From assembly GCA_048882385.1 (NCBI GenBank), contig JBHLRQ010000094.1:1-11474 (forward strand): DNA of 11,474 bases, written 5' to 3'. Below the pieces are notes generated by a model. The model saw nothing but the letters and a program-made list of their open reading frames with translations. It had not been told where the DNA came from and did no database searches. The stretch comes from Candidatus Thorarchaeota archaeon (GTDB lineage: Archaea; Asgardarchaeota; Thorarchaeia; Thorarchaeales; Thorarchaeaceae). Position numbers and translations under genes: made by a program. Below, piece by piece: positions 3,345-11,474 of this stretch. Each line of letters starts with the position of its first letter. Within the stretch, counting starts at the first letter, position 1.

Positions 3345-3477
3345 AAGTAGGTCTAGTCATAATCCCTATAATATCATCTGATAGTCAATGTGTGGTGTTT
3401 TGAACAAGATGTTACATTCGAAAAGCAATCAAGTGGAAAATGAATAGTGTGAGAATGATGATTGCACTGAGAGAAAG

Positions 3478-3509
3478 TGGCGCCCCCGCCGGGACTTGAA
3501 CCCGGGTCT
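3478..3509 (-). repeat. tRNA-Asp 3'-end fragment, copy 3 (att-like)
   Basis: Minus strand reads AGACCCGGGTTCAAGTCCCGGCGGGGGCGCCA, 30/32 identical to tRNA bases 3858-3889, followed by CTTTCTC. Confidence 0.92.
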
Positions 3510-3720: not shown

Positions 3721-3744
3721 ATTATGATGTTCTCGACCGATGAG

Positions 3745-3751
3745 TTTAATA
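3745..3751 (+). promoter_or_regulatory. Putative TATA box of the tRNA-Asp gene
   Basis: TTTAATA lies 31-37 nt upstream of the tRNA 5' end. Confidence 0.5.
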
Positions 3752-3781
3752 GAAAATCGACTTTGCTCCAACCGAACCGCA

Positions 3782-3889
3782 GCCCCTGTAGTGTAGTACG
3801 GTCAATGCTGTAAATGTTCTACAGTATCCGGATTAGCATTCAAGACTGTCACTCTTGAGACCCGGGTTCGAATCCCGGCGGGGGCGCCA
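3782..3889 (+). tRNA. tRNA-Asp(GTC) with ~30-nt D-loop intron and encoded CCA
   Basis: Acceptor stem GCCCCTG/CGGGGGC, discriminator G plus CCA, anticodon arm CAAGA-CT GTC AC-TCTTG (anticodon 3848-3850), T arm CCGGG-TTCGAAT-CCCGG. Mature length is about 78 nt after intron removal. Confidence 0.95.
3804..3833 (+). other. Non-canonical (D-loop) tRNA intron with relaxed bulge-helix-bulge motif
   Basis: 8-bp helix ATGCTGTA(3805-3812)/TACAGTAT(3820-3827), central helix ACGG/CCGG (3 of 4 pairs), 3-nt bulges TCA and ATT. Removal restores ...CGGTCTAGCAT. Boundaries may be off by 1 nt. Confidence 0.8.
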
Positions 3890-3895
3890 CTTTTT
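3890..3895 (+). terminator. Oligo-T archaeal terminator of tRNA-Asp
   Basis: CTTTTT immediately follows the CCA. Confidence 0.55.
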
Positions 3896-3905
3896 GACTC
3901 ATGTA

Positions 3906-6900
3906 CTAGTAATAATCAATTACCACTCCCTTGTTTTCAAACGCATCTTCTACCTCTCTCAAGATAGATTCTATTGTATCCTTGCTTACCTTACGATCTC
4001 TTAGATTGAGCTTGACTTCTTGCTTGATGAAGTCAAAAGATATCGATTGGTTCTTTGCAATTTCAGATGATACTGATACTACTATCACCTCCTCAAAGTC
4101 AGTTTCGTCATCTACATTGCACAGATGTGCAATCGCATCCAAAGATCTCTGACGTGAAGATTCCTCCACATGTACTCTGACAAACCTAAGTTCTGGTGCT
4201 GAATCATCAATTTCGAACACTTCGTCATCAATCAGTTTTGACTCTTCCAATTCAGCTGATTCAAGTTCGTCTATTTCCCCAATTATCGAGTTTTGAATTC
4301 GTGGATAATCAGAGAGGAGATGAACCACTCTAAGACTGACAAGAGCCTTTGAATCAATCGTGACATCACACCTTTTCCCGGAATCCGAGTCCACAAGTTG
4401 TCTAGACTCTGCCAATAGAGCTATATCGAATATCCCCATGTCCTCCATCTCAAGACCAATCAGATGTCCTCTTCCCTGTAGTCCATCCAGCTGGATCTTG
4501 AGACACTTCTTGTAACCTCGGTCCTTTCGTTGTTCATCGACTATTATTCTCAGAGTTATGTCTTCACCAGCTTTGGTCATCAAGAAGTCCTCACAGGTCA
4601 GAGGTAATTTGTAGCTGTCTGAATAGAACGAGTATCTGTGGATGAGTGGCTTGAACACTGACAAGTGATAGAAGTCATACTTCCCATCTCTGTTCTTGAG
4701 TTTCACTTCATCATACTCGATGTCTTTCTGAGCATCCCACTTGAGGTATGTGCCGTCTGCAGTCGAAAAGTACTCTCCAATTCTCTGGGGGTATCTGAGG
4801 AATCTGATCACCTCATCAGTATACTGAGTTTCCTTCTTTGCTATGGTCTTTGAGCCTTCATTCAGGTCAATCCTGTAGACCTTTTTTTCAGGGTCAAGGG
4901 TAAGGAAACATGAAACCTCTCTTACCACACCGCTCCACTCAGCAGCCTCTTTTAGCACTTCGTCACACTCTGTTTCGATATCAGAGTAAAAGGAACTTGG
5001 CTTGTACATGTTCAAGGCTACAAGAGTTCCGGGTGACGGTTGTGACAGTCTGATCCAACGTACAGGTTGATTCTGCCCCTTTGGAGGATTTCCGTACTCC
5101 AACAGACCATTCTGAACCCATTCTTCCTCGCCCTTTGTGTAGAGCACGTGTTGTTTGTTCATAAAAACAAGAACAATCGGATATTCCACCCACCCCTCTC
5201 TTGACAAGGCACTTTTTGCACTCTTCGAGAGTTTTTGAGGATCTATCTCACCTCTATACCACCCATAGCGAAGAATGGCACTCATCTGCTCCTCCAACAA
5301 CGCACCAAATATAGTCTTCTTGATTGAAGAAAACAATAGCCAGATACTGCCACCATCACTCTTCTCTTGAAAGAGCAATAGTCCGTGTTGTTCAGGAAAT
5401 CTTGTGGTTGTTTGCGAAGTTGTCTTCTTCATCTGTTTTGCCCTCCATGTGAGATTTGAGTGGATTGCTTGAAAGTCATACCTGTGTTCGAATTCTCCGT
5501 CATCCTGTTGCCTGAAACCAATCTGATAGAGCTGCCATCGTGCAACTGATGACCATAGATTGTTACAATGAGGGGACTCTGCATCTCTTAGGACTCTAGT
5601 TGCTACATCAAGTACTCCAAGAAAGAGATTCATTCCATAGAGATCCATGAGTTCAGGATTATGACCCAATGCTTGTTTCAATGTCCTCAGGTCATCAGAG
5701 TTCAATAGGTTTCCAAGATTCAACCTGTCATTGAGGAGAAGTGTCCAGAGACGCTGAGTTTCAGTTCTGCGAAGAATGGCCTCCCTGACTTGAGTGAGAA
5801 TTTCCAGTAGATTCTCCTCAGTAATAGTTTCGTTGTTGTCATAAGTACAGAGTGAAACGATCTTTCTGTAGAGAGAGCGATAGGAAGTTGGTCTCTTACT
5901 GAGGAACTCAGCAGCGTATGACAACCGTAGGACTTCTCTTCGTCTGGTATCAATCGTATCGATATGAGATGATTCAGATGAATAAGTAAAAGCTGGTCTT
6001 CGGGTGATTGTTACTGATTCTTCTTCCTCTTCGTCAGTTTCTTTATGAATCCACCCTCGTGTGATGGACTTTGCCTCAACATAGATCCCCTCATGACCAG
6101 TTCCTATTCGGTTTGGATGCGGTGGCTCTCTATTCACATCAAGATGCAGTCTGCTTGATAGACTTGGTTGAACACTGTTTGCATTGACACTGTGAAAGGT
6201 CGTTGACCAATCAACATTATGTTTATTGACCAGACTCAGTGGTTGTCCATCTCTAGGTCTGAGAAGACTTGGAATCAGGATGAATGCATGCTTTGTAATT
6301 TCTTCCAAGGAGATCATGTCAATAGTGTCAGAACGCACCTGGATGGATGAACTTCGAAAAGACCGTCCATGCATGTTTTTATGTTGATTCAGATCACCAG
6401 TTTGCCTCTCGATTTTGACAATAGGACTTCTAACGGAAGCCTTGCTGAACTTGCGGCTCAGACCCTTGAGATGCGGTACATGGATGACCGTGGACCATGG
6501 ATCTTGTTTTGTTGGTAGGTCCTGAATGATCACTCGACTGTCCTCATACTCCGGGATCTGCCACCCCATCTTTCGAGGAGCTGTGGGCACATTCCATAGA
6601 ACCTCGTCAATGACTTGTTTCCTGGGAGATTTGTAGTAGAATGGACTTGGACTGTTCCGTTGATAGAGCTCGGAAACCTGTGGAAGGTCAACTCCTGTAT
6701 CAGTCCAGATCACCTCGTTCATGAGATTCTTTACAATCTGAAGCAGTGAAAGTTCAAGCACCTGTAGATTGTTCCTATGAGTCATAGGAGTCATATTCTC
6801 CAAGTCCGACCAGCCATCCACAACTGCAATTCGATTCTCTGACTCAGATTGAAGAGCTGCAGTGATTGCAGACTTCGCTTTCTCGATTCCTGATTGTTTC

Positions 6901-8999
6901 CCGTTGATGAGAAATCCATCAATATCATTTCTAAGACTGACAAAGGTGACTCTTTCTAACAGTCTTCTCAGTCTTGCATATTCTGGATTCGTAATCAGCT
7001 TGTTCTTCTTTAGATCCTCAAGTCCAAATCGTTTCTCTATCAGTTTCTTTGTTGGAAAATCACCGATTAGATCAATCCAAGTCAAAGAAGTTTCTGTGTT
7101 TGCAACCTGTTCAAGCTCTGCAAGGTGGTTCAAGAGATGCCAGTTCTTGGCAAACCATGTTGCACTCTTGCCAAATGATGTTGGAGATGATAGTGAAATG
7201 TACTGAGTGAAGAAGGTGTCATCCTCCACTCTATCTACAAAGGGGTCTTCGAATAGAACATCTTTGAGGGGATTGATACGTTTTAGTACATCCACAGGAC
7301 CTTGTGCTGGAGTCATTGTAACGGCTACTCGAGGAGCTATCTGTTCTGTAGACTTGTCTTTGAATTTGAGTGACTTCCACTGTCCCTTGAATTCTCCTTT
7401 CATTATTCGATTAGCCAGGTCGGAGATGATGTAATCGAACGCTCGCTTTGTGTCTTCGTAGTCTTGAGAAACATCAAGTGTGACCACTCCCTTCCAGAGT
7501 TCTTTGAAAGCAATAGTTTCACCGATGATTGAATGGTACTCTGATAACAGGGCATTCTCATATGCATCTATCTGGTCAAGATGGATTTTAGGGGGCTTTG
7601 AACCAAGTGTTTCACCCCATTCTGATGTCTTGAGAGGTTCTTTCCAAGCGTTCAAGACTGGTGTGAAGACATTGGATTTTTTCGTACGAGGACGTTTTCC
7701 AAATAGGTTGAAGTCGAATCCAGTCTTGGTCTTCACCTCAAGAATCATGATGGGCGCCCAGATATGGCTACCACGCCAACGAATACGAACAAAAAGGACA
7801 AGGTCTATCTTTCCTGATTCTTGAGTTCCAGTGACTGGAACTTCAGCAAAATACTGAAACCCAGAAGGAGTCTGAAGGAGATGGTCTCCAGCAAAGATAG
7901 CCTCTTTGAGTGAGTGAGGTTGAGGATATCCAGAAAGCAACACTCTGTGCCAGTTGTTCCCTTCTAGTTGTACGCTCCTCATGATGTTTTCAAGGAACGT
8001 TTCCACTTCTCTGTGTGTGACGATTCTTCTCTCAATGTGCTGAAGAATTATCCTACATTTCTTCTTGGTTTTTCTGTCTTCTGAGTTTTCTTGTATTGCT
8101 TCAACCTGTTCTTTGAGAGCATCTATTCCAAAACCTTGAGGAACATCTTCGACCGGTTTACTCATTCTCTCTCTAGTCCCAATGTGTCTGCTGTAGTTGT
8201 TCCTGATTTCAAGTACAATCTTTCTCAATTCCCTGTCTGCGCCGGGGGAGAAATCCTTGCGACCTGTCTTTCCTCGTGTGTACACCCAATCGAGAAATGG
8301 GGTCAGTCTATGAATCAACAGTCTAATGTATCGATGTGACTCAGTTCGAGGTACACAATGGATGAAGCATTGTCGACAGAGCTCAATGAGATGAGCTCGT
8401 AGCATATCTCCAAAGTCCATGGCTGGTAGTGTAGGATGTGTAAGTAACACTCGAGGATTCTTAGAGTTGCCTCGATATCCCGCTTTCAAGTGAGTCTTCA
8501 CCCCAAGTGCTGCTGGGACCTTGGCCGCTACATCTTTTGGAATGACTTGCTCTGTTCCATCTGGATATTCTCGGATCTCGTAGAGCTGTGGGGTTGGGAA
8601 TGTATAACGTGGAACAACGATATCTCGTAGTGTTGCTCCAGCATAATTCAGTAGACTATTGAGTTCTCCAATGGTGCCCTCTTTCCAGCTGTATACTCGC
8701 CTCCTCTCTTTGTTGCCGTATCGTTTCGTGCTAAGCCAGAGCATACGTAGATTCAGCTTTCTGAGGTGGGATTCTATCTTCTGAACTTTAGAGAAATCAT
8801 GCGGGCGGCTTGATCCGTCCATTTTCTTATTCACTTGGATAGATTTCCATTTGTTTCTAATTTTTTCAAAGATTTCTTCTGTCTGTCTATTCTTTCGTCT
8901 ATTTGCTAACCAGACTAGAGCTGATAATCCTGAATAAAGTGCAGTAGCTAGAACTACATTCGGTCTGAATTCCTGAGTTCTTCTCCCCAAATAGGACAC
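3906..8999 (-). CDS. Large multidomain protein: PD-(D/E)XK nuclease domain + degenerate P-loop NTPase-like domain + long unknown C-terminal region
   Basis: 1697-aa uninterrupted ORF. Nuclease motifs E386, GKID399, ILE421VK423 and Q476IDAY480 (RecB/Cas4-like QxxxY). Walker A-like SSPTSFGK611S and Walker B-like RIAVVD728G. The true start may be ATG at 8822 (MDGSS). Confidence 0.8.
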   Translation of the reverse strand: MSYLGRRTQEFRPNVVLATALYSGLSALVWLANRRKNRQTEEIFEKIRNKWKSIQVNKKMDGSSRPHDFSKVQKIESHLRKLNLRMLWLSTKRYGNKERRRVYSWKEGTIGELNSLLNYAGATLRDIVVPRYTFPTPQLYEIREYPDGTEQVIPKDVAAKVPAALGVKTHLKAGYRGNSKNPRVLLTHPTLPAMDFGDMLRAHLIELCRQCFIHCVPRTESHRYIRLLIHRLTPFLDWVYTRGKTGRKDFSPGADRELRKIVLEIRNNYSRHIGTRERMSKPVEDVPQGFGIDALKEQVEAIQENSEDRKTKKKCRIILQHIERRIVTHREVETFLENIMRSVQLEGNNWHRVLLSGYPQPHSLKEAIFAGDHLLQTPSGFQYFAEVPVTGTQESGKIDLVLFVRIRWRGSHIWAPIMILEVKTKTGFDFNLFGKRPRTKKSNVFTPVLNAWKEPLKTSEWGETLGSKPPKIHLDQIDAYENALLSEYHSIIGETIAFKELWKGVVTLDVSQDYEDTKRAFDYIISDLANRIMKGEFKGQWKSLKFKDKSTEQIAPRVAVTMTPAQGPVDVLKRINPLKDVLFEDPFVDRVEDDTFFTQYISLSSPTSFGKSATWFAKNWHLLNHLAELEQVANTETSLTWIDLIGDFPTKKLIEKRFGLEDLKKNKLITNPEYARLRRLLERVTFVSLRNDIDGFLINGKQSGIEKAKSAITAALQSESENRIAVVDGWSDLENMTPMTHRNNLQVLELSLLQIVKNLMNEVIWTDTGVDLPQVSELYQRNSPSPFYYKSPRKQVIDEVLWNVPTAPRKMGWQIPEYEDSRVIIQDLPTKQDPWSTVIHVPHLKGLSRKFSKASVRSPIVKIERQTGDLNQHKNMHGRSFRSSSIQVRSDTIDMISLEEITKHAFILIPSLLRPRDGQPLSLVNKHNVDWSTTFHSVNANSVQPSLSSRLHLDVNREPPHPNRIGTGHEGIYVEAKSITRGWIHKETDEEEEESVTITRRPAFTYSSESSHIDTIDTRRREVLRLSYAAEFLSKRPTSYRSLYRKIVSLCTYDNNETITEENLLEILTQVREAILRRTETQRLWTLLLNDRLNLGNLLNSDDLRTLKQALGHNPELMDLYGMNLFLGVLDVATRVLRDAESPHCNNLWSSVARWQLYQIGFRQQDDGEFEHRYDFQAIHSNLTWRAKQMKKTTSQTTTRFPEQHGLLLFQEKSDGGSIWLLFSSIKKTIFGALLEEQMSAILRYGWYRGEIDPQKLSKSAKSALSREGWVEYPIVLVFMNKQHVLYTKGEEEWVQNGLLEYGNPPKGQNQPVRWIRLSQPSPGTLVALNMYKPSSFYSDIETECDEVLKEAAEWSGVVREVSCFLTLDPEKKVYRIDLNEGSKTIAKKETQYTDEVIRFLRYPQRIGEYFSTADGTYLKWDAQKDIEYDEVKLKNRDGKYDFYHLSVFKPLIHRYSFYSDSYKLPLTCEDFLMTKAGEDITLRIIVDEQRKDRGYKKCLKIQLDGLQGRGHLIGLEMEDMGIFDIALLAESRQLVDSDSGKRCDVTIDSKALVSLRVVHLLSDYPRIQNSIIGEIDELESAELEESKLIDDEVFEIDDSAPELRFVRVHVEESSRQRSLDAIAHLCNVDDETDFEEVIVVSVSSEIAKNQSISFDFIKQEVKLNLRDRKVSKDTIESILREVEDAFENKGVVIDYY

Positions 9000-9165
9000 T
9001 CCAGCTATTCCTTTTCAATTTTATTTATAAGTATTTCATACTTATTCAGAAGTCTATAATTTATAAAAATAGCCTTATCAGTTTTTATTTTCTTAATTAA
9101 AGGATTTATAATATATTTTCATAATAACTTAATAAGGAAACTTGTATGATAAATCTATGAGTTAA
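9000..9165. promoter_or_regulatory. Very AT-rich divergent promoter region containing the self-target 9126-9140
   Basis: Several TATA-like boxes (TTTATAA 9060, TTTATAAT 9105, TTAATAA 9129) lie between two head-to-head genes. Confidence 0.65.
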
Positions 9166-9168
9166 TTA

Positions 9169-9236
9169 CTCCAATTCTAGACAAAGATTGGAGTGAACTC
9201 AACTGACCTGAAACAGGTCAGAACTTAATAAGGAAA
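9169..9236 (+). ncRNA. Candidate leader/tracr-like RNA with built-in 15-nt guide
   Basis: Hairpins CTCCAAT/ATTGGAG (9169-9193) and CTGACCTG-AAA-CAGGTCAG (9203-9221). Bases 9186-9214 are complementary to downstream repeat 1. Bases 9222-9236 are identical to 9126-9140. Confidence 0.55.
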
Positions 9237-9245
9237 GACAAAGCG

Positions 9246-10922
9246 ATGGCTCGGTCCAAGGGTGTGACAATCTCGGTTAAGGTCCCAATCAACTGGGAAG
9301 CCATGACCGAGAGGACTAAGCAGAGACTTAGGCAGACCATTGGGCGAGACACCAGAGTGATACGTGCATTCCTTGGAATTATTGAACAACATGAAGACAA
9401 GTTGTTGACAGGTCGTAAGAAAAATCGGATTGATGAAGGTGAGCTGGATAAGCTCACTATGACTGCACTCCAAGTCAAGGCGGGCTATAGTCAGAGACTG
9501 ACCGTACCTCATGACTTCAAGGCGAGGTTCCCTCGAATATCTCAGAACGAGATGACCGAGTGCAGACAGACTGCAGTTTCTTTGTATGAGAGTTATCTTA
9601 AGCTCAGAATAAAGAATGGATTGAGAGCTTCTCGCCCTGCATCAATCAATAGAAGTCGACGTATTCCCAGATGGGTCTTTGCTCAACGATTCAGACTTGT
9701 TGAAAAACGTACATCTTCAGCCCGCTGGTGGCTAGACATCAGGGATTCTCTTGACTCCGTACAGGCTGGACGTACATTTCACGATAGATTAGTCATTCCA
9801 TTGAAGGTTTCACCCTTTCACCTGAATCAACTCCACCGTGGAGATGTAAAGGCTGTACAGATCTTCACTGATCGATTCAGAAAGTGGTGGGTGACAATGG
9901 CTGTCAGGGTAGCGGTTGATGACTTCCACAAGAGTGAGCTTCCTGCAGCGATACTTGGAATAGACCTCGGCATTGAAAAGGCCGCATGTTCAACTCTTCT
10001 GACTCCAGAGAAGACGAGGGAAACAAGATACTTCATCCAAAAAGAGAAGGTCAAGGTCATCAAGAAGTACGATGGACTTGTCGCCGACCTGCAGAGGAAA
10101 ATGCACCTCCGCAGAGACAACGGAAAACCTCATGATAAGATGGCAGTAAGGCTCCGACAGATGAAGAGTAAGAGGGAGAATGTAGCCAAGGAGTATGATA
10201 GAGTTCTAGTTCGACAACTCCTTGATTACATCTCCACACTGTCCAAGAAATACACACTCTATGTTGCCATTGGTCGCCTGAAGAATATACGAATGCGTGC
10301 CAGAAGAGGAAACTATCAAGGTTCTAGGTACCGGGCCATGATACATTCATGGGCTTTTGCCCGGATAACCGATAGTCTGAAACATGGACTTGCTCAGCTC
10401 GGTTGGAAGGTTGAGGGAAAGGACTCGAGGTTCCGTGCAGTTCCTGAGGCTTGGACTTCCATCATGTGCTGGAAGTGTGGAAGCAGGGGTAAGAGACCCA
10501 AACAGAACTATTTCCACTGTCCATCCTGTGGTCACAAGACCAACGCTGATAGGAATGGTAGTATCAATATTGCTGCACGCATGCTTAAGCTCACAAAGTC
10601 ACTGCACTCTGTGAGAGGACTAGGTATGTGGACTAGAGCTCTAGATGGAGTTCGACGTGCACGACCAAAAGCTCAAGAGAAACAACTTTCTCAAGGGAAG
10701 TCCTTACTCTCTTTTAAGGATCAAACATCAGATCTTGGAGAGTCCGCGGCTGTTCACCATACTCAGATGAGTCTTCTCAGCTTCAGCGATGAATCTGGGA
10801 AGGGTGATGATGACCCCGCCGTGGTAAGTACTGTGGAAACTCTTGCTGTCGTTGGAAGTGATGATCCGACATCAGTACAGGAGAAAAAAGCCAGGTCTTC
10901 AGGAGGGATTCCATCCCGATGA
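9246..10922 (+). CDS. tnpB: TnpB/Cas12f-like RNA-guided RuvC protein with rearranged catalytic site
   Basis: RuvC-I ILGID240LG; RuvC-II position YVAIG343RL (Gly instead of Glu); alternative Glu in VPE401AWTS; zinc ribbon C408/C411/C425/C428; RuvC-III NAD435RNGSINIA; ~115-aa C-terminal tail. Confidence 0.88.
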   Translation: MARSKGVTISVKVPINWEAMTERTKQRLRQTIGRDTRVIRAFLGIIEQHEDKLLTGRKKNRIDEGELDKLTMTALQVKAGYSQRLTVPHDFKARFPRISQNEMTECRQTAVSLYESYLKLRIKNGLRASRPASINRSRRIPRWVFAQRFRLVEKRTSSARWWLDIRDSLDSVQAGRTFHDRLVIPLKVSPFHLNQLHRGDVKAVQIFTDRFRKWWVTMAVRVAVDDFHKSELPAAILGIDLGIEKAACSTLLTPEKTRETRYFIQKEKVKVIKKYDGLVADLQRKMHLRRDNGKPHDKMAVRLRQMKSKRENVAKEYDRVLVRQLLDYISTLSKKYTLYVAIGRLKNIRMRARRGNYQGSRYRAMIHSWAFARITDSLKHGLAQLGWKVEGKDSRFRAVPEAWTSIMCWKCGSRGKRPKQNYFHCPSCGHKTNADRNGSINIAARMLKLTKSLHSVRGLGMWTRALDGVRRARPKAQEKQLSQGKSLLSFKDQTSDLGESAAVHHTQMSLLSFSDESGKGDDDPAVVSTVETLAVVGSDDPTSVQEKKARSSGGIPSR

Positions 10923-11474
10923 ATGTTGACAACGCTCTTGCTAATTTTGGCAAATTCTTTTGGATTTTGCTAGGAGGTGGTGACACTGGCAAGAGAGGGG
11001 CGGAACACAGAGGTTTCTTTCAGTTGTGGTTCACTCACAATCTCAGAAGCAGGTCATACACTACAGGGGCTCGGGTACTATGATTGAGCATAGAGGTTAT
11101 TTGCAGTTGCGGAACACACACAATATCAAAAGCAGGTCATGATGTTCACTCACTTTGTGGAATAGGTTATGCTAGATCGGACTTCACTTGGTATAGCATA
11201 GTATTAGATGAATGAGTGAATCATTCTGATAGGTCATGGAGTAACATCTAAGGACTTGTTCTAAATCCCACCTAGTGTTACGGAGATATAGCTCACTAAC
11301 CAACAGCCTGAGTAGTTGTGAAAAGATTACAGAGTAGATTTATTACCATCCGAGCCCTATAGAAGAGTGGCTCACAGAGCCAAGCTGCCCCTAGACCTTA
11401 CTCCATTTCTGTGTTTTATCGCAACCCTTTTATGGCTACAGAATTCCCCGTCCTTTGCTCAGACAGAACTGCTT
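10923..11474 (+). ncRNA. Candidate large structured ncRNA/guide region downstream of the tnpB-like gene (may extend past the window end)
   Basis: No substantial ORF. Many stems: 10935-41/10989-95, 11002-14/11405-17, 11067-74/11350-57, 11145-52/11213-20, 11168-74/11194-200, 11236-44/11398-406, 11368-82. AGGT(C/T)AT recurs. Confidence 0.55.
11009..11140 (+). CRISPR. Mini-array-like unit: two imperfect 49-bp direct repeats around a 34-nt spacer that matches the tRNA-Asp gene
   Basis: Repeats 11009-11057 and 11092-11140 match at 40/49 positions and both end in AAGCAGGTCAT. Bases 11057-11071 are the exact reverse complement of 3781-3795. Not a canonical CRISPR array. Confidence 0.55.

Follow-up and report, generated by a model that had tools for sequence, protein, structure and literature searches.

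What is the pair of genes that stands beside a tRNA-Asp gene in a Thorarchaeota archaeon: a locus domesticated by its host, a system for guided insertion or a mobile element? The DNA analysed here, referred to as the window, is a complete contig of 11,474 nt (C94) from an assembly of 3.7 Mb in 256 contigs. This genome is labelled G000 and the locus in the window W; other G codes denote related genomes, C codes contigs and L codes fetched loci. The window carries a tnpB-like gene for 558 amino acids (aa) on the plus strand and a giant gene for 1697 aa, here termed aCas1, on the minus strand. The head-to-head arrangement described in the initial annotation is borne out by the coordinates of the open reading frames (ORFs), with 246 nt between the two starts. 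The stop of the giant gene had been placed 17 nt from tRNA-Asp; the two do adjoin, and the gap to the CCA of the tRNA (3889) is 16 nt. The pair is probably part of an aCas1–TnpB mobile element with two guide modules that share the sequence CAGGTCA. Features of the window are listed in Table 1.

Copies, borders and proteins of the element

A single domesticated locus had been envisaged at the outset; the family-wide match counts instead describe a multicopy mobile element. Of 61 related genomes, 25 contain homologues of the giant protein, and these are all from one family, f1 (24/36 genomes there against 0/24 in the 17 other families of the phylum), often with about ten matches per genome (8–12). 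TnpB has relatives in 42 of the 61; the matches number over 300, and short 3′ pieces make up many of them. Among 1.84 billion proteins, relatives of the giant protein fall into 190 representative clusters. The divergent tnpB-like neighbour, whose conservation had been proposed as a check, is present next to the giant gene at 18 of the 20 loci fetched around giant-protein matches, at a distance of 246–280 nt. The genome of the window holds one full copy and a decayed second copy (C147), and the locus is syntenic in G000, G013 and G016. One related contig carries two tandem tnpB-like genes beside one large gene (G032:C6:85153–88666; the genes lie at 85153–86823 and 87053–88666, both on the plus strand).

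The copies have definite borders. On the tnpB side they cease to be similar right behind the handle GGTCA(N), at about 135 nt beyond the stop codon, and on the giant-gene side the similarity between paralogues stops at the stop codon itself. Contigs frequently break at the element. The copy in the window would span 3894–11057 plus a guide, and it is rather likely to be one member of a mobile family specific to Thorarchaeota. An empty site is provided by G004, in which the same tRNA-Asp and its upstream sequence (95% identical over window positions 3727–3893) are followed right after the CCA by unrelated DNA with no giant gene. The suggested comparison of filled and empty sites therefore succeeds at the 3′ end of the tRNA; it goes no further, as the flanks in G004 are unrelated to those of W and no single rearrangement path could be derived. 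In G022 the right flank of W is present in inverted orientation about 1 kb upstream of tRNA-Asp.

Shortened copies accompany the full ones. In 16 of 20 solo 3′ fragments the homology begins at TnpB aa 442–458, and many solos are preceded by the ATTGTATGAG-type sequence that opens the tnpB leader. These shared starts indicate fusions of the left end with the guide-RNA gene that resemble miniature inverted-repeat transposable elements (MITEs). No Pfam match to TnpA, Cas1/Cas2 or Tns proteins, to a TnsC/TniQ-like adaptor or to PolB was obtained among the ORFs of the window, in agreement with the absence of tnpA, cas1/cas2 and tns genes first noted. In a search that left serine recombinases aside, Y1 TnpA (PF01797) turned up in one of the 28 genus genomes and at none of the loci. 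A transposon family driven by the giant protein would be expected to show just such autonomous, TnpB-only and miniature copies without TnpA.

The 558-aa protein matches Pfam PF07282 (E 1.8e-13), the NCBIfam model guided_TnpB (E 2.3e-23, with 83 bits falling under the curated cut-off of 100), the Cas12u3 and Cas12f models of PADLOC, and a solved TnpB structure (PDB chain 9nzp, E 1.1e-10). It has the RuvC-like and TNB signature, including a zinc finger of the form CxxC...CxxC. Its catalytic set consists of D240 in RuvC-I, E401 (VPExWTS) and D435, with Gly343 at the canonical RuvC-II position, and is found in 38/38 members of the family. The protein thus lacks the canonical D-E-D triad, the RuvC-II glutamate being glycine in all 38, and E401 is a candidate substitute. 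A ‘rearranged’ RuvC class, in which this glutamate has become glycine and a substitute glutamate lies on the next strand, has been described and argued to stay active (PMC10691335, section 8). Because D240, E401 and D435 are invariant and such a class has been published, the TnpB is not called dead; it is probably still a nuclease with a rearranged RuvC site, and the dead-nuclease reading was dropped.

The giant protein gives no match in Pfam, NCBIfam, PADLOC or PHROGs, a Pfam run on all 19 members of its family returned nothing, and the ESM Atlas yielded no usable match. Five family-invariant residues in its N-terminal part (E76, N114, H188, D195 and D198) are candidate Cas1-like catalytic residues. 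When 101 family members were compared with 30 Asgard Cas1 proteins by hhalign, an E value of 0.028 was obtained and none of 60 shuffles scored as high. In this run and in a smaller one (see below) E76 is aligned to the catalytic Glu of Cas1, the LLNY motif to its N-x-L-L-x-Y helix and D195/D198 to its D-x-x-D/E motif, and N114 is likewise aligned to a catalytic motif; H188 is not aligned to the Cas1 His. A putative PD-(D/E)XK-like motif (E386, D399 and ExK423) is conserved in the family. The giant gene was also read as containing a P-loop, a reading that is rejected here, as the GKS-like stretch is not conserved across the family. The giant gene most likely encodes the integrase or transposase of the element. 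The name aCas1 is said to go back to Makarova et al. in 2020.

Guide modules and tRNA genes

The sequence CAGGTCA occurs eight times in the window against 2.1 expected, and 0/200 shuffles reach this count. One of the copies closes a scaffold in the 5′ untranslated region (5′UTR) of tnpB, in which about 80 nt of the leader are conserved over 29 aligned loci. The 15-mer AACTTAATAAGGAAA follows this handle and recurs upstream at 9126–9140, with 0 such repeats expected. The match between a handled guide and the shared promoter region, as first noted, is therefore exact and beyond chance, and it covaries over loci. Across the family the 12–16 nt after the 5′UTR handle equal a TATA-like box 92–105 nt upstream (about 95 nt), which is usually preceded by T-N-A-T, mostly TAAT. 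Exact self-matches of at least 11 nt are seen at 22/36 loci, against 8/1248 non-self pairs of guide and upstream region. The guide exists in 30 distinct versions, and the proteins are only 46–90% identical. The covarying 15-mer pairs are best explained by selection for a match, and they suggest RNA-guided autorepression of tnpB at its TATA box. Copies without the upstream box start right at the leader scaffold (L125, L127 and L129), which places the box just outside the minimal TnpB unit. As RNAalifold found 4 pairs only in the 5′UTR alignment, a hand-drawn structure was tested instead.

The second module lies at the other end of tnpB. A candidate ωRNA gene overlaps the 3′ end of the coding region and continues beyond it; its stem (10935–10942 with 10988–10995) shows compensatory changes at 6 of 8 pairs. 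The scaffold contains an anchor, GTTCACTCAC, at 11029–11038, where the GTTCACTCA motif lies, which is present in 17/18 aligned scaffolds, and it ends in the handle. By inspection, the variable stretch before GTTCACTCA pairs with a stretch after it. Since this variable stretch is a stem strand, and since the copies diverge only after the handle, the guide is placed after the handle and not before GTTCACTCA. A structured ωRNA overlapping the tnpB 3′ end, with a guide at the right end, is thus indicated, and it is exactly this part that the solo copies retain. Exact metatranscriptome contigs from three runs of one study cover only 10602–10984, a span that begins where the solo copies begin. These runs hold 0.06–0.09 of the query words, and the contigs give presence only, not ends, strand or level, so that uncovered parts are uninformative; their cover is a weak hint of the ωRNA gene.

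The first 3′ guide matches the tRNA. The 15-mer TACACTACAGGGGCT is found at 11057–11071 on the plus strand and at 3781–3795 on the minus strand, 0 being expected, and the match extends to 18/20 nt (3776–3795). The CAGGTCA-handled exact match to the tRNA gene described at the outset is accordingly upheld. In the orthologous locus of G013 (L033) the same 14-nt guide and 15-mer pair are followed by different sequence.

Downstream of this guide lie three more truncated scaffold ends (11086–11140, 11144–11170 and one extending to 11237). The first is a 55-nt repeat with 80% identity to 11003–11057; the second has an anchor remnant at 11144–11153 and then the handle ATAGGTTAT at 11162–11170; the third ends in the handle TAGGTCAT at 11230–11237, followed by 11238–11253. 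Similar mini-arrays are present in five other loci, including L042 (3 units), L125 (2), L175 (2) and L180 (2).

Guides were compared with tRNAs by blastn, as a 16-nt ungapped scan is uninformative for matches that run off the ends of a tRNA. In the first paired set 7/18 guides are firmly tRNA-derived and two more are soft (L042 and L047). The first-set matches are to tRNA-Asp (twice), Arg-TCG (15/15; L036), Pro-CGG (16/16; L039), Arg-CCG (20/20; L040) and two tRNA-Gly (L035 and L037). In L035 and L037 the element end abuts a whole tRNA-Gly, and the 3′ half of tRNA-Gly stands directly after the giant-gene stop. The second paired set (20 right ends, 15 with an anchor) gives 2/15 firm cases: in L166 the guide (Arg-TCG) opens with tRNA-Arg positions 8–26, and L180 has two units that both open with the tRNA-Asp anticodon arm. 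Among TnpB-only or solo copies 2/24 guides match a tRNA. The giant-gene-bearing elements are tied to tRNA genes, and both the tRNA neighbour and the tRNA-matching guide seen at W recur at other loci, often with other tRNAs. As the DNA beside the right end serves as the guide, much of the apparent self-targeting follows from the position of the element. An IS605-type model of a transposon-adjacent motif (TAM) plus flank was rejected, the intact tRNA sites in G000 having no common motif before the guide match.

The remaining guides adjoin other conserved RNAs or ordinary DNA. Two loci from different genera, L052 (G035) and L136 (G034), have the same guide, GCACTGCAT(A/G)CG, and after it a hairpin in which compensatory changes are seen and the sequence CGACCCT(G/A)TCC, which suggests insertion beside a conserved structured RNA gene unnamed by Rfam. 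In L045 (G001:C17) a fragment that matches the final ~90 nt of archaeal 23S rRNA lies beside the right end, about 200 nt downstream of tnpB, and the guide of L044 matches sequence ~30–45 nt beyond the end of that rRNA fragment. In L042 (G027:C22) a tRNA-Leu(UAG) appears to be split by an insert of ~9.6 kb, its 5′ part (positions 1–37, equal to the G000 allele) and 3′ parts lying on one strand. An intact, diverged tRNA-Leu(UAG) is found within the insert on the other strand and the split fragments match the allele of the genus, as if a replacement tRNA had been brought in.

Table 1. Features of the window, with the evidence on which each assignment draws (UTR, untranslated region; BRE, B recognition element)
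Feature	Position	Strand	Basis
Copy of tRNA-Asp 3′ end (from variable loop through CCA, with trailer), right after the stop of a methyltransferase gene	899–937	−	Repeat search
Further copies of tRNA-Asp 3′ end	1861–1894 and 3474–3509	−	Repeat search
Site matched by 3′ guide: one upstream base plus tRNA positions 1–14, antisense	3781–3795	−	Exact 15-mer, 0 expected
tRNA-Asp(GUC) gene with non-canonical intron of ~31 nt (about 3809–3840)	3782–3889	+	Rfam, ARAGORN intron mode, hand parse
Giant gene (aCas1), 1697 aa	3906–8999	−	Candidate Cas1-like N-terminal domain and PD-(D/E)XK-like motif
TATA/BRE-like box of tnpB (15-mer 9126–9140; TAAT at 9122–9125)	9122–9140	+	Exact repeat; promoter role suggested by sequence and position
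5′UTR scaffold: long hairpin, then hairpin CTGACC (9203–9208)/GGTCAG (9216–9221), ending in handle CAGGTCAG	9144–9221	+	29 aligned loci
CAGGTCA copies	9214–9220, 11050–11056, 11133–11139	+	Sequence count
5′UTR short guide AACTTAATAAGGAAA	9222–9236	+	Exact repeat
tnpB-like gene, 558 aa	9246–10922	+	PF07282, NCBIfam guided_TnpB, PDB match
Candidate ωRNA gene: last ~105 codons of tnpB plus 135 nt	10602–11057	+	Covarying stem, solos, RNA contigs
3′ guide 1	11058–11076	+	14 nt (15 with T11057) antisense to tRNA-Asp 5′ end; 18/20 overall
Mini-array or graveyard of truncated scaffold ends	11086–11253	+	Repeat search

The tRNA-Asp gene scores 29.7 bits with the Rfam tRNA model at 3824–3886. A plain ARAGORN run called no tRNA at this locus; in intron mode the program called 3782–3889 but typed it as Arg(CCG), and a hand parse gives tRNA-Asp(GUC) with the intron after the D-arm. 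The anticodon arm CAAGA/CTGTCAC/TCTTG undergoes a compensatory change to CGAGA/TCTCG in the sister genome G004. No second tRNA-Asp copy was found in the G000 assembly by blastn. The three fragments elsewhere in the window comprise the last ~36 nt of tRNA-Asp with a CTTTCTC trailer, all inverted with respect to the intact tRNA, and their T-loop reads TTCAAGT against TTCGAAT in the intact gene. A minus-strand gene or a non-coding block stands immediately upstream of each fragment, and fragment B, read on the plus strand, terminates in CAGGTCAT, which resembles the handle of the element. Sister genomes are rich in such fragments, with 20 matches in G020, for example. The fragments resemble what attachment sites would leave behind at a tRNA integration hotspot, or gene cassettes.

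Some smaller observations concern the non-coding DNA around the two scaffolds. The conserved GGAGTGAACTC of the leader (9190–9201) is the reverse complement of GTTCACTC(AC) in the 3′ scaffold (11029–11038). Pairing over 8–9 nt would be possible between the two RNAs, or between the DNA ends, as subterminal inverted repeats or in the manner of a crRNA–tracrRNA anti-repeat. The 16–18 nt after the last degenerate handle (ATGGAGTAACATCTAAGG; 11236–11253) have an imperfect inverted copy, 83% complementary, at 11389–11406, 135 nt downstream; in L033 the downstream arm matches the reverse complement of the window's upstream arm without a mismatch. The two arms may be a guide and its target or the stem of an RNA gene; this region has no Rfam match. 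The final 77 nt of the window (11398–11474) are identical to the end of G000 contig C75 on the reverse strand, so that the sequence continues there. A tRNA-Lys(UUU) lies on the plus strand ~80 nt past the window end, and L033 has an intron-bearing tRNA at the same place.

Proposed mechanism and competing explanations

In the proposed mechanism the giant protein, with a very diverged Cas1-like N-terminal domain and a PD-(D/E)XK-like nuclease motif, would act as the integrase or transposase. TnpB would be an RNA-guided protein of the OMEGA type (obligate mobile element-guided activity) with a ‘RuvC-II rearranged’ site, served by both guide modules. The long 3′ ωRNA would read the DNA abutting the right end, here the first 14 nt of tRNA-Asp. 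In aCas1 elements this abutting DNA is often a piece of tRNA because the elements sit in or beside tRNA genes. With the short 5′UTR guide, TnpB would bind its own promoter and damp its own transcription, and the shortness of the match may allow binding without cutting.

Several observations weigh against this mechanism. The homology to Cas1 is weak and at most suggestive: the 19-sequence N-terminal family alignment gave an hhalign E value of 0.06 against the 30 Asgard Cas1 proteins, with 4/60 column shuffles as high, Pfam Cas_Cas1 did not detect the giant gene in five genomes, and PDB profile searches with both halves of the family returned nothing. It is from a motif link and from synteny that we infer the 1697-aa protein to be the published aCas1. 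Neither terminal inverted repeats (TIRs) nor a target-site duplication (TSD) could be defined at the element by a repeat search of the window. The sole 20-nt inverted pair (3776–3795 and 11057–11076) is the match of tRNA and guide, and the element is not flanked by a direct duplication. A further 20 TnpB loci were chosen because no giant-gene match had been listed for them; three have the giant gene next door, 14 are without it over at least 3.5 kb upstream and three are too short. The tRNA piece in the guide has the opposite orientation to the whole tRNA nearby in W, L036, L040 and L166, which no simple insertion model accounts for, and in L039 the guide matches tRNA-Pro, not the tRNA adjoining aCas1. 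In the leader, 93% pairing in helices 1 and 3 comes with few compensatory changes, and the 15-mer duplication could be structural, not regulatory. A guide to its own promoter would also be dangerous if TnpB is an active nuclease. Finally, the related genomes are not independent samples.

It is also conceivable, if unlikely, that insertion is guided in the manner of a CRISPR-associated transposon (CAST), TnpB binding the tRNA gene with a tRNA-matching guide and recruiting the giant integrase. The enrichment of firm tRNA-derived guides in copies with aCas1 over TnpB-only or solo copies is in keeping with such recruitment. So are L035 and L037, where the guide equals the 3′ end of the abutted tRNA-Gly like an attP arm, and the 14-nt guide kept between W and L033 when the sequence beyond it differs. 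Moreover, the tRNA matched by a guide need not lie next to the right end (W, L033 and L039). However, most guides of the family are not tRNA-like, no TnsC/TniQ-like adaptor is seen among the window ORFs, and TnpB has a complete rearranged catalytic set, unlike Cas12k. The bases 5′ of the tRNA targets (GTAC, GAAC, GCCA and ATGT) are also unlike the T-N-A-T found 5′ of the promoter targets. Type V-K CASTs insert on the side of the target distal to the protospacer-adjacent motif; the element in W lies on the TAM-proximal side, 94 nt from its target, which is a different geometry.

A further possibility, and a decidedly improbable one, is a two-protein RNA-guided Asgard transposon composed of a Cas1-family integrase and TnpB. 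Its guides would mark the DNA outside both ends of the unit, TnpB would cut or mark these sites for excision or copying, and the tRNA guide would steer the integrase. The promoter box does lie 3–14 nt before the left end of the TnpB unit, and the right-end guide is flank. The mini-arrays would then be footprints of guide capture mediated by Cas1, and the element a living intermediate between TnpB and adaptation in type V CRISPR.

The mini-arrays could instead be a primitive array produced by proto-CRISPR adaptation and not insertion scars, the Cas1-like protein adding short ‘spacers’ beside the end of the ωRNA scaffold and duplicating that end, but this is very unlikely. W indeed has two 55-nt repeats on either side of a 28-nt spacer, with units absent from its orthologue L033, and multi-unit arrays are seen in L042, L125, L175 and L180. 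A candidate Cas1-family gene is next door, and irregular ωRNA-like arrays with long repeats are mentioned in the portions of PMC10691335 drawn on here. Nevertheless, the units of an array mostly open with the same target (TAGGTCCC three times in L042, TC(A/G)AGACTGTCA twice in L180, and twice the same in L125), so repeated events at one site fit better than the sampling of foreign DNA. The repeats are cut to different lengths, the targets are the host's own tRNAs, and a multicopy family with MITE-like derivatives behaves as a transposon.

There is very little to recommend a domesticated, immobile regulator of the TldR kind, controlling tRNA-Asp or the giant gene at this locus. Its guides are short (about 15 nt) and one lies on a promoter, the locus is syntenic in three genomes, and G000 has a single full copy; against this stand the many copies per relative genome, the decayed copy on C147 and the solo derivatives, the invariant catalytic residues, and a promoter target that belongs to tnpB itself, with the giant gene's TATA-like box ~80 nt away. 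That the short matches are functionless, the tRNA match being a rearrangement scar at a tRNA hotspot and the 15-mer repeat a leftover duplication, is scarcely credible: the tRNA-Asp region is a rearrangement hotspot with three inverted 3′-end copies and flanks that differ among G000, G004 and G022, and the window has another 14-nt exact repeat, probably by chance, but both matches begin exactly at the end of the common handle, neither 15-mer is expected by chance, the 15-mer pair covaries in 30 versions at a fixed distance, and guides at other loci match other tRNAs.

Relation to known systems

The preferred reading, a mobile aCas1–TnpB element with two guide modules, has a published counterpart, so the gene pair is not undescribed as the initial annotation had supposed. 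Asgard TnpBs associated with aCas1 form two groups (Cas1H-Asgard-1/2), taken as a likely transposon with aCas1 as the likely transposase, and carry the same GTTCACTCA motif (Altae-Tran et al., 2023; PMC10691335, in the parts drawn on here). The present element resembles them in its Asgard host, in a tnpB beside a proposed Cas1-family gene (which may be the aCas1 of that paper), in GTTCACTCA, in being multicopy and in the RuvC-II glycine. The main text of that paper describes a variable stretch and then the conserved GTTCACTCA downstream of tnpB, and proposes the variable stretch as a possible guide. In contrast, the stretch upstream of GTTCACTCA is here a strand of a covarying stem, and the copies diverge after GGTCA(N), ~20 nt further on. 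The word tRNA is absent from that main text, and the content covered makes no mention of the 5′UTR self-promoter guide, of a link to tRNAs or of MITE-like solos; its supplementary Fig. S4 may bear on these points. In the literature searched, which had the supplements of PMC10691335 outside its scope, no publication was found describing a self-promoter guide or a tRNA link.

Like the TnpB–ωRNA systems of IS200/IS605 elements, this one has a zinc-finger TnpB, an ωRNA over the tnpB 3′ end, a guide past the right end, and TnpB-only and MITE-like copies. It differs from them in the rarity of Y1 TnpA (1/28 genomes, serine TnpA not having been searched), the giant partner gene, the second guide module in the 5′UTR and the lack of a consistent TAM at empty tRNA sites. 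Type V-K CASTs (Cas12k with TnsB/TnsC/TniQ) similarly have a TnpB-derived protein on an element at tRNA genes and a short self-encoded tRNA guide. Here, however, there are no Tns proteins, TnpB retains its catalytic residues, the candidate integrase resembles Cas1 and is not of the DDE kind, and irregular repeats of scaffold ends take the place of a regular CRISPR array; the geometry of target and insertion differs as well.

For the guide to the own promoter two parallels can be drawn. Workman is said to have reported in 2021 that tracr-L autoregulates Cas9 through a short guide aimed at the Cas9 promoter. TldR proteins likewise use a short guide of partial length aimed at a promoter, as far as the portions of that report considered here go (10.1101/2023.11.30.569447); unlike TldR, the present TnpB keeps D240, E401 and D435 invariant and belongs to a multicopy family with derivatives. 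Both parallels differ from the present case, known from sequence alone, which has a full catalytic set, a guide in the mRNA leader of the effector, an archaeal host and a TATA box as target.

A candidate Cas1-family integrase serving as the transposase of an archaeal mobile element is a feature shared with casposons, and integration at tRNA genes has been reported for some casposon families. The present element has no PolB, no TIR and no direct target duplication of 14–15 bp, its protein is five times larger, and TnpB is present; a casposon-type TIR/TSD model was rejected, as neither was found. To our knowledge, no natural link between a Cas1-family integrase and TnpB outside CRISPR has been reported other than the aCas1–TnpB pair. 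Aloposons (PMC8813620), which in the portions of that source considered have tandem genes for 3000–6000 aa and no TnpB, are a different element.

Apparently new, as far as the search extends, are where the guide lies, a self-promoter guide that covaries, the bias towards tRNAs among copies with the integrase gene, MITE-like copies of the guide-RNA gene and the mini-arrays. Three of these points offer testable handles: the guide position after GGTCA, the self-promoter covariation, which predicts an RNA-guided autoregulatory loop in an archaeon, and the strong link between integrase-bearing copies and tRNA genes. If guidance by TnpB and Cas1-type integration are coupled, the element would be a compact archaeal system for RNA-guided insertion, and it would bear on how the adaptation and effector modules of CRISPR first met.

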